Source: Chloroflexota bacterium (lineage in GTDB: Bacteria; Chloroflexota; UBA11872; VXNJ01). Taken from it: 64,000 nt of DNA. This document shows, one piece after another, positions 26,211-29,859 of the stretch (the stretch's first letter is position 1; each line of letters begins with the position of its first letter). Location of the stretch: NCBI GenBank assembly GCA_965203015.1, contig CBDBBM010000025.1, positions 4,551 through 68,550 of the forward strand. Direction: 5' to 3'. The notes under the pieces were generated by a model. That model did no database searches and had not been told where the DNA came from. It saw nothing but the letters and a program-made list of their open reading frames with translations. The position numbers were made by a program, and so were the translations under genes.

Positions 26211-27386
26211 ATGTCCTTCCTGACCGCCAACAATCGCCCGCGCGGAGTTGCACGGGTCCTCTTCTGCGCCGATGTGCGGTTGGGCGACGCGCCGGTCTGG
26301 CTGCCCTCGAAGCAGCGCCAATCGGCATTGCTGGAGCGCCGGCTGGCGTTCGGAGCGCTGGTCAACGCCGCCAAGCAGGCACCGGCCGACGGCGTGGTGA
26401 TCTGCGGCGGGCTATTTAGCCGTCACGATCCGCAGCCGTCTGAGATTGCCGCCGCCGCGGCCGGCCTGGAAACCCTGCGGGACGCCGGAATCGCCTGCCT
26501 GGCAATCCACGCTCCGGACGAACGCTCACCCGAAGATTCGGTTTCGGGGCTGGACCTGCTGTCCCGTTTGGGGCTGATCCAGTGCGTAGACCTCAAACCC
26601 GGAACCCGGGTGTTTGAGCTGCGCGGCCTGCGCGTGGCGGTCACGGCGCTGGCAGTCGGCCCGTCGTTCCGCGGAAACCCGCTGCGGCAACTCAATTTCG
26701 CACCAGCCGGGGATTTCCACGTCCTGCTGGCGCACGCCTGGATCGAGCAATTCGCTCCGGCGGGGGCGAGCGGACCAATCATCGATTCGGATTCGATCAA
26801 CGCCCTGACCGGCGTGAACCTGCTGGTGGCCGGCGGAAGTTCGCAGCCGCAGCGGATCAGGGCCGGCCGGGCGACGGTGATAGCGCCCGGGGCTCCCCTG
26901 CGTCCGGCCCCGGACGGCGGTTTCGCCAACGTCACGTTCGGAAAAAACGGGATCCTGGAAGTCCAATTCGAGTCTGGAGTTGGCCTGCCGGCCGGTGAAG
27001 TCCTGGTGCCGGCGAGCCTGCTGGCGGCCCAGGACGCCAATGCCCGGATCCATCGCATGCTGGACGAGGCCGCGGTCGGTTCCACCGAAGTGACGATGCG
27101 GGTCTACGGCCGCACGGCAGCCGCAGTACTGCGCGAGGCGGGACTGGCCGAATTGTGTGAATACGGGCGCTCGCTGACCGCCTGCTTCAGCCTGGACGTG
27201 TCGGGCCTGTTGACGGTGGAGGAACCCGAAGACTGCGGGCGCGGGCCGCTGGCGGTCATCGAAGAGATCGAAGAGCTGTTGGAAGCGGACGATTCAACCT
27301 GGTCCAGCCCCGAGGAGCGAATTGCGGCGCGGAGCGAGATCGGGGCAATGCTGCGCGACGCGCGCCGAATCGGCAGCCTGGCATGA
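26211..27386 (+). CDS. SbcD/Mre11-like calcineurin-fold phosphoesterase with degenerate metal-binding motifs
   Basis: N-terminal VLFCADVRLGD (motif I with Arg where His is expected), ICGGLFSRHD (motif II GDLFD degenerated), and a C-terminal capping-domain-like region. Stop overlaps the start of the next gene (ATGA). Confidence 0.55.
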   Translation: MSFLTANNRPRGVARVLFCADVRLGDAPVWLPSKQRQSALLERRLAFGALVNAAKQAPADGVVICGGLFSRHDPQPSEIAAAAAGLETLRDAGIACLAIHAPDERSPEDSVSGLDLLSRLGLIQCVDLKPGTRVFELRGLRVAVTALAVGPSFRGNPLRQLNFAPAGDFHVLLAHAWIEQFAPAGASGPIIDSDSINALTGVNLLVAGGSSQPQRIRAGRATVIAPGAPLRPAPDGGFANVTFGKNGILEVQFESGVGLPAGEVLVPASLLAAQDANARIHRMLDEAAVGSTEVTMRVYGRTAAAVLREAGLAELCEYGRSLTACFSLDVSGLLTVEEPEDCGRGPLAVIEEIEELLEADDSTWSSPEERIAARSEIGAMLRDARRIGSLA

Positions 27387-29859
27387 TCACCATCGCACGG
27401 CTGCGGATCTGCAATTTGCGGGCGGTGGCGGATTTTGATCTGCGCATTCCGATGCGGGGCCGTTTCCTGATAGACGCCGGCGCCGGCATGGGCAAGACAA
27501 GCGTTGTGCTGGGACTGCGTCTGGCGCTGACCGGAGCGGCGCCGGATTGACGAATGGCGACTTGATCCGTTCGGGCTCCGATTCGGCCCGCGTTGAACTG
27601 GAACTTAGCGACGGCCGCGACCGCCTGCGGCTGCGGCGCGCTTTCTCCGCCACCAGGCAGAGCGCATCCGCCTGGGCATCGAACGGGATAGGCGAGATTC
27701 GGGTCGACGGCCCGGACCAGGTCGCCGCCTTGCTGGCGGACTTCTTTGCCTACCCGTTAACTCAGATAAGCGATTTCTTCCTCTGGAATTCGCCCGCGGA
27801 CCTCCGCGAATCGGCGCTTGCCGCCGACCGCGGTTATCTCCAGCGGGCCGCCGCCAGACTGGCCGGGGGCGGCGACCTGGAGGAGGCCGTAACCTCGGCC
27901 CGCGACGCGGTCAGGCGGAGCCACGACTCCAAGCGGCACCGCGAACTGGTCGCGCGACGACTTCGGCTGCTCAGGGAATGGGCCGGCCAGGCGCTGGCGG
28001 TGATCGCACCGGCGCTGGCGGCGGCGCGCGAGGAAGCCGGGTCGGCGCGCGATGAGCTGGCGCGGCTGAAGCGGCAGCTGACCGAAGTCGAAACCCTGGG
28101 CAAGCTGGGGGGACGCTCCGGCCAGATTTATGCCGCCGCCGGCCAGATCATCGAGCAATCCCAGTCCCTGGACCGCGCCTGTGCGCGGCTGCGATTGCTC
28201 CACGACATGGCGACCGAGCCTGACGGCGGCGAATCCGAATTGATCAAGTTGCGGGCGCGGGCCAACCGTCTGCGCAGCGCCCGCGAATCTCTCACCGAAG
28301 CCCTCTCGCTTGAAGCCCGGGGAGCCAGCCAGGCGGTCGAGTCCGGCTCGTCCACCGGCGCGACGCTCTCGCGACTGGTCGAGTTGCGCGATGGCAACGC
28401 GGTGTCCGAATCGGCGCGGCGCGCCTATGCGCGCTGGTGTCGGTTGAGCGAACAGATCAGCATCGTGGCTCCGGCCGGAATCGCCTCGCGATTCGCGCTG
28501 GGCAGCGCCGGCGAGGACCCGGTTCGCCTGAAGGCCGAGCTGCGGATCCTGGAGCGGGAAATGGAGCGCCAGGGAATCCAGGTTCCGGCCACGCCGGACC
28601 AGGCCCGGCAGCTGGCGACCGGACAGGCCGCCGAGTCAATCGCCGATCTGGAGGAAATGCTGCGCACGCCGCTTGCGGTCGATGAAACCGAATCCGGTGG
28701 TGTGGCCGGCGATTTTGCCGAGCGCGGCGCGGCCCTGCGCGATCAGGCCGCCACAATGCTGTTCGGGCTGGACCTGCCGCTGGACCTTGCGCAGATCGAG
28801 CGCAGCCTCACGGCCGCAGAGTCCGAAATCGCCCGGCTGGAGCACATGGCAAACGACCCTCCGGCCCTGATCGCCCACACCCAGGAACTCGAAGCAGAGA
28901 TTGCCCGGATTCGGGCGGTGCTCGAAAAAGGCCGCGAACAGCTGGCGCAGCTCGCCCCGGAAGAAGGATTCGAGGATTTCGGGCTGGACTTGGACCGGGT
29001 GGCGGCGCTGCGCAAATCGGTCCTGGAAAGCAGCAGCGACCGCGATGCGATGGAGGTTTCGCCCAACCCGGTCCTGGAGCGGCGCCTCGCGCATGCCCGG
29101 CGCCGGGCCGCCCATCTGGATGGCAAGGTGTCCACGCTGGAGGCCGATGCCAGGGAGGCGGCCGGAGTCCTGGACATGGAATTGGATCCGGCGCTGGTCG
29201 AGGCGCGTGATCGCGCGGCCGATGAATCCCGCAAGCGGCAGCTGGAAGTCGAACTGGAGGCCGTGGAAGGCGAACTGGGCAGGCTGGGCGAATCCTTGCG
29301 CATGACAACAGGAGGCGGGGACGGACCGCCGGTCGAAGGCGACGTGCGGCAGGCCGAACTCAATCTGGACCGACTCCAGCAGCGGCAGCGGATTCGGGCC
29401 AAATTGGCCGCCACGCTGCGTGCAATGGATTCTGCGCTGGCTGATCGGGTGGGCAGTCGAACCCTGCAGAATGCCCGCAACCTGCTGCCGCAACTGAGCG
29501 GCGGCCAGTACTTCGATCTGCGCGTCGCCGCCGCCGGCTCGGTCGAACTCTGGGACGAATCGTCCCACAGCTGGATCGGCGCGGCTCAGTGCGGCAGCGC
29601 AGTGTACGAGCAGACCTCGCTGCTCCTGTGGCTGGCCCGCGCGTTGACGCACGGCGCCCCGGGGATGGCCGGCATACCGGGATTCTGTGTTCTTGACGAC
29701 CCCGGAGCGCTCACGACCGAGCGGCTGCGCCAGCTCCTGGCGGACACCCTGGTGCGCAATCCGCTGCTGGATTCGATCCCGCAGGTACTGGTCCTCAGCG
29801 AGCGGTCGGCATTTGCCGAGGCCGGATTCAGCCGACTACATACGCTTGAGCCAAATTAA
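27383..29859 (+). CDS. SbcC/Rad50-like ABC-type ATPase with long coiled-coil. Frame broken by an apparent 1-nt deletion in a T run at about 27546-27548.
   Basis: N-terminus MITIARLRICNLRAVADF...IDAGAGMGKTSVVLGLRLALTG (Walker A). Continues in the next frame as NGDLIRSGSDSARVELEL... The C-terminus has the signature LSGGQ, Walker B-like FCVLDD, and an H-loop region VLVLSERS with no His. Confidence 0.6.

Follow-up and report, generated by a model that had tools for sequence, protein, structure and literature searches.

The window analysed here, a 64,000-nucleotide stretch of contig CBDBBM010000025.1 from a Chloroflexota bacterium (assembly GCA_965203015.1), carries a genuine, translationally coupled pair of Mre11(SbcD)-like and Rad50(SbcC)-like genes, joined by a gene for a membrane protein. 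The module is very probably a catalytically inactive derivative of Mre11/Rad50 that is maintained by selection; despite the catalytic loss it keeps the fold, the domain order, the coupling of the genes and the synteny, and it remains under purifying selection. That its products form a non-enzymatic, membrane-linked scaffold derived from Mre11/Rad50 is, we think, probable.

The three genes of the module are called A, B and C below; L numbers denote related contigs or loci, and P numbers homologous proteins. Gene A (26211–27386, plus strand) is an open reading frame (ORF) of 391 amino acids with an Mre11/SbcD fold and degenerate phosphoesterase motifs. Gene B is present in two pieces on the same strand: an N-terminal fragment of 55 amino acids (27383–27550) carrying the Walker A motif AGAGMGKT (27476–27499), and a remainder of 770 amino acids (27547–29859) comprising a long coiled coil and a C-terminal head lobe, as in Rad50/SbcC. 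Gene C (29915–30355, plus strand) encodes 146 amino acids with four transmembrane helices predicted from hydropathy and alignment. The ATG of B at 27383 overlaps the TGA stop of A by four nucleotides (ATGA), bearing out the overlap described in the initial annotation of this locus, and every peptide quoted there (FCADVRLGD, ICGGLFSRHD, AGGSSQPQ, AGAGMGKT, FCVLDDP and QVLVLSERS) was found, with correct coordinates.

A search of gene A against Pfam returned no match at E≤1, and the NCBIfam model Mre11_Halo matched it weakly (E 3.6e-7; 29.7 bits, where the cutoff is 550). The profile built from A and ten close relatives matched Pyrococcus furiosus Mre11 (1ii7) in the PDB at an E-value of about 2e-5. 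With the AlphaFold model of A (predicted local distance difference test score, pLDDT, 66) as a Foldseek query against the PDB, the best 50 matches were all Mre11 (E ~1e-13, target-normalised template modelling scores 0.40–0.68). A scan of 1.8 billion representative proteins recovered 197 relatives of A. The more distant of these are proteins of ~390 amino acids, positive for Pfam Metallophos (PF00149) and named at source ‘metallophosphoesterase [Chloroflexota]’ or ‘SbcD/Mre11’, and they keep the canonical motifs DNHL, GDLFD, GNHD, H..EG and GHxH. Alignment by hhalign of the close relatives of A with these motif-intact proteins ran end to end over 373 columns (probability 100%, E 5.5e-55), reaching residue 384 of A. 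Helices are predicted at residues 346–357 and 367–386, in the C-terminal part where a Rad50-binding region would be sought.

Where the motifs of the intact proteins fall on A, other residues are found. In the alignment of 1ii7 with the profile, D-x-H has become D-V-R, GD has become GG and GNHD has become APDE; in the hhalign alignment, the motif IV histidine corresponds to H175 (H, R or D in relatives) and GHxH to G-G-S-S. The window's A thus reads D21-V-R23 at motif I (26271–26279), G66-G67 at motif II (26406–26411), H100-A-P-D-E104 at motif III (26508–26522), H175 at motif IV (26733–26735) and G208-G-S-S211 at motif V (26832–26843). Six of the eight metal-ligand or catalytic positions of P. 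furiosus Mre11 are replaced: H10 by R23 (A in one relative), D49 by G67 (invariant), N84 by P102, H85 by D103, H206 by G209 and H208 by S211. The other two, D8 (D21 in A; G in two relatives) and H173 (H175 in A; R or D in relatives), vary among the relatives. To judge from its sequence, A lacks the metal ligands and the catalytic histidine of Mre11. The initial annotation had proposed substitutions at motifs I and II and at GHxH, and had named ligands at shifted positions as the finding that would overturn them; the substitutions hold under profile alignment (1ii7 for motifs I and II, hhalign for GHxH), and the ligands do not reappear at shifted positions.

At the level of close relatives, the window's A differs from P0001 (99% identical) at two residues, with S211 for P (26841) and H281 for R (27052), the first of which falls on the former motif V position. 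Five substitutions separate the window from L006 within gene A.

The second gene presents a comparable picture. Pfam gave a sub-threshold match of B to AAA_23 (E 0.0035), and a profile of eleven B homologues matched the N-terminal lobes of Methanocaldococcus jannaschii Rad50, RecF and Thermotoga maritima Rad50 with E-values of 3.7e-5 and weaker. In the AlphaFold model of B (pLDDT 68) an N-terminal beta/alpha lobe is separated from a C-terminal lobe by some 540 residues of helix, predicted over about residues 165–705; in Foldseek the model retrieved Rad50 first (E 1.5e-9), followed by Smc5/6, MukB and JetC. The geometric apex of the coiled coil, at about residues 431–441, is a variable loop of low model confidence, and the coil is interrupted by two conserved segments, EPDGGESE (28216–28239) and ATMLFGLDLP (28744–28779). 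The window's B, read as the P0011 sequence, contains no CxxC zinc hook; a pattern search found none in the B proteins of L014–L017, L098 and L099 either, and hydropathy revealed no hydrophobic or transmembrane segment in the window's B or its close relatives.

The nucleotide-binding motifs of B were aligned, by BLASTP and multiple alignment, against the motif-intact B partners of L014, L015, L016 and L017. Walker A, GLNE[AS]GKST in the intact proteins, is retained as AGAGMGKT with K38 invariant, and its description as acceptable in the initial annotation stands, the GKT of the P-loop being kept. In P0021 (L003), from a lineage close to that of the window, the P-loop is one residue shorter (DAPAEGKTS). 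The other motifs are replaced: FSGG of the signature by CGSA (QCGSAVYEQ, 29587–29613), FLDEP of Walker B by VLDDP (FCVLDDPG, 29683–29706), SSFD of the D-loop by ALTT (ALTTE, 29707–29721) and ISH of the H-loop by LSE (LVLSERS, 29788–29808). Alignment with M. jannaschii Rad50 gives an identical register for Walker B and the H-loop. The earlier proposals that the Walker B glutamate had become aspartate and that the H-loop histidine was missing are therefore confirmed by alignment to intact SbcC-like proteins and to Rad50, with glutamate now in the place of the histidine. Missing from B are the signature motif, the Walker B glutamate, the D-loop aspartate and the H-loop histidine, and only the P-loop lysine is left. 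By alignment the Q-loop glutamine appears to be gone as well (FVEQ in the intact proteins, FFLW in the window), an invariant Q128 lying seven residues upstream.

In the window, B is interrupted. Positions 27544–27545 read GG where L006 has GGG, so that the first frame of 55 codons ends at a premature TGA (27548–27550) and the remaining 770 codons lie in another frame (27547–29859). Over 13.7 kb L006 is 99.8% identical to the window, and it encodes an intact B of 825 amino acids (P0011) that is 100% identical to the two pieces of the window joined together, and the frame at this site is kept in L006 and in two more distant relatives. Over the same 13.7 kb the two sequences differ by 28 substitutions and by this one frameshifting indel only. 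The missing base could be an isolated homopolymer assembly error or a recent strain-specific mutation. A programmed frameshift was considered and rejected, because the relatives encode a single continuous frame at the site. The SbcD–SbcC pair proposed in the initial annotation therefore stands as regards its substitutions, but not as regards B being one ORF, the one-base deletion having gone unnoticed.

A search of a genome collection with the alignment of close A proteins found the gene in five genomes, all from one uncultured Chloroflexota lineage with chromosomes of 2.1–2.4 Mb. A metagenome scan with the intermediate group of A proteins returned distant generic Mre11-like matches only (best 27% identity) and no new members of the module. 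The order of genes in all close relatives is bacA, the H+-pyrophosphatase (H+-PPase) gene and hisC on the minus strand, followed on the plus strand by A, B, C (~146 amino acids) and an aspartate-aminotransferase-like gene (AspAT). In the window the two nearest synteny markers are the divergent hisC (histidinol-phosphate transaminase, 24914–25969, minus strand; TIGR01141, 319 bits, exceeding the cutoff) and AspAT (30425–31606, plus strand); these flanks, and the small membrane protein at 29915–30355, are as the initial annotation gave them. The arrangement of H+-PPase and hisC, then A, B and C, then AspAT is found in L001–L011, L013 and L098, and A and B are full length and ATGA-coupled in the related loci examined.

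Synteny extends to much more divergent copies. In L098 the order is bacA, H+-PPase and hisC, then A (P0023, with 32% identity to its counterpart in the window), B (881 amino acids), C (150 amino acids), a methyltransferase, an acetyltransferase and AspAT; in L099, A (P0049), B (1005 amino acids) and C (170 amino acids) are followed by the same three genes. P0022 (34% identical) likewise lies beside hisC and H+-PPase, and the position of the module near these two genes holds down to about 30% identity. Since the distant L098 and L099 share this neighbourhood, the copies represent one orthologous module. In a neighbour-joining tree the A proteins of the hisC locus group together, separate from the motif-intact family, which sits at other loci and without C. 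The best explanation is that the module is specific to one lineage of uncultured Chloroflexota, and that it descends from a hook-less, motif-intact Chloroflexota SbcD/SbcC-like family with a transmembrane hairpin in the middle of the coiled coil.

The lineages differ in how much of the catalytic apparatus they have lost. The A of L098 is altered only at motif III, which reads GDAD and lacks Asn-His, motifs I, II, IV and V being present; its B retains an intact P-loop, the D-loop aspartate and the transmembrane hairpin, with S-A-G as the signature, DD at Walker B and no H-loop histidine. Degeneration of A is complete in the window lineage, whose B is left with the P-loop only and no hairpin. 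In L099 A is also fully degenerate; B lacks the P-loop (GPDESRL), the DE of Walker B and the H-loop histidine, and keeps the hairpin. This last protein (L099:1662–4679) is thus a 1005-amino-acid Rad50-like protein without the Walker A lysine (LVTLGPDESRL), retained alongside a degenerate Mre11-like gene and a gene for a four-helix membrane protein. The stepwise loss, and the persistence of module and synteny in L099 even without a P-loop, argue that the function of the module does not need catalysis. The simplest reading of the distance tree is that an early inactivating step was common to the L098, L099 and window lineages. It would have comprised loss of the catalytic histidine of A, the change of the Walker B glutamate to aspartate and loss of the H-loop histidine, after which the unconstrained catalytic residues would have decayed in parallel across the lineages.

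Selection on the module was gauged from the ratio of nonsynonymous to synonymous substitution (dN/dS) between the window and L007, at a dS of about 0.6. The values were 0.15 for A, 0.17 for B and 0.33 for C, compared with 0.16 for hisC, 0.06 for AspAT and 0.02 for H+-PPase. Ratios of 0.15–0.33, in the range of hisC, indicate that the three genes are maintained. Intact, full-length ORFs were present in ten protein clusters for A and eleven for B (clustering at 90% identity). The module nevertheless diverges faster than its neighbours: against L098, A is 32% identical and H+-PPase 67%.

C, which the initial annotation did not recognise as part of the system, is the conserved third gene of the module. 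It follows B in L001–L005, L098 and L099, and was found by tblastn, outside the gene tables, in L006 (100%), L007, L008, L010 and L011. At the four loci that pair an intact A with a B, no C comes after B; these are L014, L015 and L017 and, with the pair convergent, L016. The B proteins of the intact relatives, and those of L098 and L099, have a transmembrane hairpin in the middle of the coil and no CxxC. The idea that C substitutes for the hairpin lost from B was rejected, because L098 and L099 carry both.

The SbcC-like partners of the wider, motif-intact Chloroflexota family (L014:7203–9377, L015:6248–7927, L017:6242–7915 and, on the minus strand, L016:6191–9844) are predicted to carry one or two transmembrane helices at mid-coil and lack CxxC. 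Membrane anchoring of such motif-intact partners seems not to have been described, except for the ‘hydrophobic central domain’ of Bacillus subtilis SbcE. In one branch of the family (L016:1–9844 and L012:3004–11730) the Mre11-like gene comes after a HerA-like (DUF87) gene and a gene for a 1315-amino-acid superfamily-1 helicase, and is convergent with a gene for a 1217-amino-acid Rad50-like protein, a layout that recalls the archaeal HerA/Mre11/Rad50 clusters.

The initial annotation had suggested a non-hydrolytic derivative rather than the canonical hairpin nuclease, and the confirmed substitutions, the purifying selection and the loss of the P-loop in L099 support it. For how such a derivative might work we have a tentative proposal, a specific membrane-tethered scaffold, which we would hold less firmly than we would doubt it. 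A dimer of A would hold two coiled-coil arms of B in an assembly like that of Mre11–Rad50. The assembly would be placed at the membrane by C and, in the sister lineages, also by the transmembrane hairpin of B. The complex would bind DNA or some other partner and tether it, neither cutting DNA nor cycling ATP, and nucleotide, if bound at all, would serve as a structural ligand.

Several points weigh against the scaffold reading. We infer the scaffold, tethering and DNA-binding steps, and physical interaction among A, B and C is assumed from gene order. The transmembrane helices were predicted from hydropathy, without a dedicated predictor; confidence in the AlphaFold models of A and B is moderate, and low at the P-loop and C-terminal head lobe of B; and the neighbour-joining tree may suffer from long-branch attraction. 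Near the old active site of A, residues H100, E104, D168, H170 and E179 are conserved in close relatives and might, in principle, make up another site. In B the invariant GK[ST] and DD persist, and some degenerate ATP-binding cassette (ABC) sites with substitutions of this kind still bind ATP and hydrolyse it slowly. Finally, B carries a frameshift in the window, and the module may therefore not function in this strain.

The conserved residues are what commends the view that A and B are still an enzyme acting through non-canonical residues, whether by a re-built metal site in A or by slow ATP hydrolysis in B with the Walker B aspartate and a glutamate or arginine of the H-loop. The five residues of A are invariant or nearly so, as in B are K38, D772, D773, S806 and R808 (invariant) and E807 (near-invariant), and purifying selection acts on the pair. 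The ligand positions of A, however, vary even in close relatives (D21 to G, R23 to A, H175 to R or D), one lineage has the shortened P-loop DAPAEGKTS, and L099 keeps the module while lacking the P-loop and all motifs of A. H170, D168 and E179, moreover, are also conserved in the intact family, which marks them as structural features of the family and not as a new site. We regard continued enzymatic activity as improbable. A further possibility is that the genes are decaying pseudogenes, an SbcCD remnant in the course of disappearing. In its favour, neither A nor B has a Pfam match at gathering score, B is frameshifted in the window, and the three genes of the module show quicker divergence than those around them. 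Decay of this kind does not fit dN/dS values in the range of hisC, intact full-length ORFs with the ATGA overlap in the loci examined, synteny kept to about 30% identity, 770 codons that stay open past the frameshift, or a repaired B that is 100% identical to an intact homologue. For the lineage as a whole the purifying selection and the full-length, coupled ORFs lead us to reject it, and it has very little chance of being right.

Two further explanations were weighed. In one, the initial annotation's idea of a regulatory paralogue, or a decoy, the dead A–B pair would modulate a canonical SbcCD-like enzyme coexisting with it, for instance through competition for DNA ends or the formation of mixed complexes. 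This would account for the retention of the fold and interaction regions of A, and the separation of the A clade from the motif-intact Chloroflexota family at other loci would fit an old duplication. No canonical sbcCD was found within the 64-kb window, however, and a dedicated C, together with the transmembrane hairpin of the sister lineages, points to an independent role at the membrane rather than to titration of a soluble enzyme; we consider a paralogue of this kind unlikely. An SbcCD-derived anti-phage or abortive-infection system has a documented precedent in Lamassu, a co-opted SbcCD that has given up its nuclease domain (PMC12663957), and the membrane protein could then be the effector. 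Yet PADLOC gave no match for A or C, and for B sub-threshold P-loop matches only (E≥0.0036); there is no recognisable effector domain; and the position among housekeeping genes is stable over deep divergence, unlike that of mobile defence islands. The lack of a PADLOC match and the housekeeping neighbours indicate that this is not a defence system, and we would be greatly surprised were it otherwise. The membrane-linked scaffold is the reading retained here.

Among described systems the closest is SbcE/SbcF (YhaN/YhaO) of B. subtilis, likened here by description, in which an SbcD-like gene lies beside an SMC-like gene without CxxC (PMC2811018). Both systems have an Mre11/SbcD-like gene adjoining a Rad50/SbcC-like gene whose coiled coils are long, lack the CxxC hook and include a distinct centre, and the central domain of SbcE is hydrophobic and insoluble (PMC2811018). 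That hydrophobic centre matches the transmembrane hairpin of the intact Chloroflexota relatives, L098 and L099. Pfam AAA_27 matches the B proteins of L016 (26.8 bits) and L017 (26.1 bits) against a cutoff of 22, and the window's B falls below threshold. SbcE/SbcF is treated as an active nuclease/ATPase with a phenotype in repairing double-strand breaks in DNA, whereas the catalytic motifs of A and B are gone; and the window lineage, without the hydrophobic central segment, has a separate four-helix membrane partner. We read the window pair as descending from the SbcE/SbcF type, yet no longer showing the hydrophobic central domain.

With canonical SbcCD/Mre11-Rad50 the module shares an Mre11 fold, a Rad50-like head and coiled coil, an upstream nuclease gene and an overlapping stop and start. 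It differs in lacking a zinc hook, in having six of eight Mre11 positions, the signature, the Walker B glutamate, the D-loop and the H-loop replaced, and in that neither A nor B reaches a Pfam gathering score. The asymmetric ABC transporters offer a parallel for B: in their degenerate sites (TAP1, CFTR NBD1) the Walker B glutamate has become aspartate, the H-loop histidine is lost and the signature deviates, and such sites bind ATP and hydrolyse it poorly, each paired with one active site in a heterodimer. In B, by contrast, both sites of the presumed homodimer would be degenerate, with losses extending to the Q-loop and D-loop. Lamassu (LmuABC) resembles the module as an SbcCD-derived complex that has given up Mre11 nuclease activity for a new use, but its ATPase remains active and its CxxC hook is in place, it has the effector LmuA and only the C-terminal domain of SbcD, and is found in defence islands (PMC12663957); active ATPase, hook, effector and defence-island setting are all unseen at the A-B-C locus. 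The actinobacterial pair Rv1277/Rv1278, suggested in the initial annotation as context, proved off target: the host is a member of the Chloroflexota, and the nearest relatives are the Chloroflexota SbcD/SbcC-like family with the transmembrane hairpin. Our literature searches met Rv1277/Rv1278 in gene lists only and yielded nothing relevant.

Around the module, a scan of 25900–31800 for promoters and terminators gave no promoter-like sites, and terminator-like sites at chance level. Elsewhere in the window, the 23S ribosomal RNA (rRNA) gene (42747–46468, minus strand, 3.7 kb) contains a group I intron at 43723–44384 (Rfam RF00028, 61.9 bits). The intron ORF (43713–44165, minus strand, 150 amino acids), which starts MNLNAAWIVGFVDGEGCF, resembles by eye a LAGLIDADG homing endonuclease. 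A 5S gene follows the 23S gene at 42557–42672; there is no 16S gene in the window, and the rRNA operon may therefore be split. A 584-amino-acid protein encoded at 40763–42517 (plus strand) scores 303 bits against TIGR03663, the Agl23 ‘flippase activity-associated’ family, named for an archaeal N-glycosylation component, and a long-form bacterial signal recognition particle RNA with the Alu domain type lies at 57567–57831 (minus strand; RF01854, 160 bits).

Accounts of Mre11-Rad50/SbcCD usually centre on a nuclease cycle driven by ATP, and our literature searches turned up no account of a chromosomal Mre11/Rad50 pair in which both active sites have died naturally while selection has kept the genes. 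The lineage described here provides a natural separation-of-function series, from partly degenerate through P-loop only to no P-loop, that could be used to probe what part the Mre11-Rad50 architecture plays when catalysis is gone. The same lineage points, too, to the SbcE/SbcF-like branch, hook-less, membrane-anchored and little studied, which seems to serve many Chloroflexota as their standard SbcCD-like system. Automatic annotation leaves these proteins without a name or a family, and the label ‘SbcCD’ would wrongly imply a hairpin-nuclease activity. A more far-reaching idea, speculative and on balance doubtful, is that A-B-C is a new membrane-associated structural complex, built from a co-opted Mre11/Rad50 and needing neither nuclease nor ATPase; it could be a tether of nucleoid to membrane, or a coiled-coil envelope or cytoskeletal element, in these small-genome Chloroflexota. 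If that were true, the series from L098 through the window lineage to L099 would record an enzyme complex turning into a pure scaffold.

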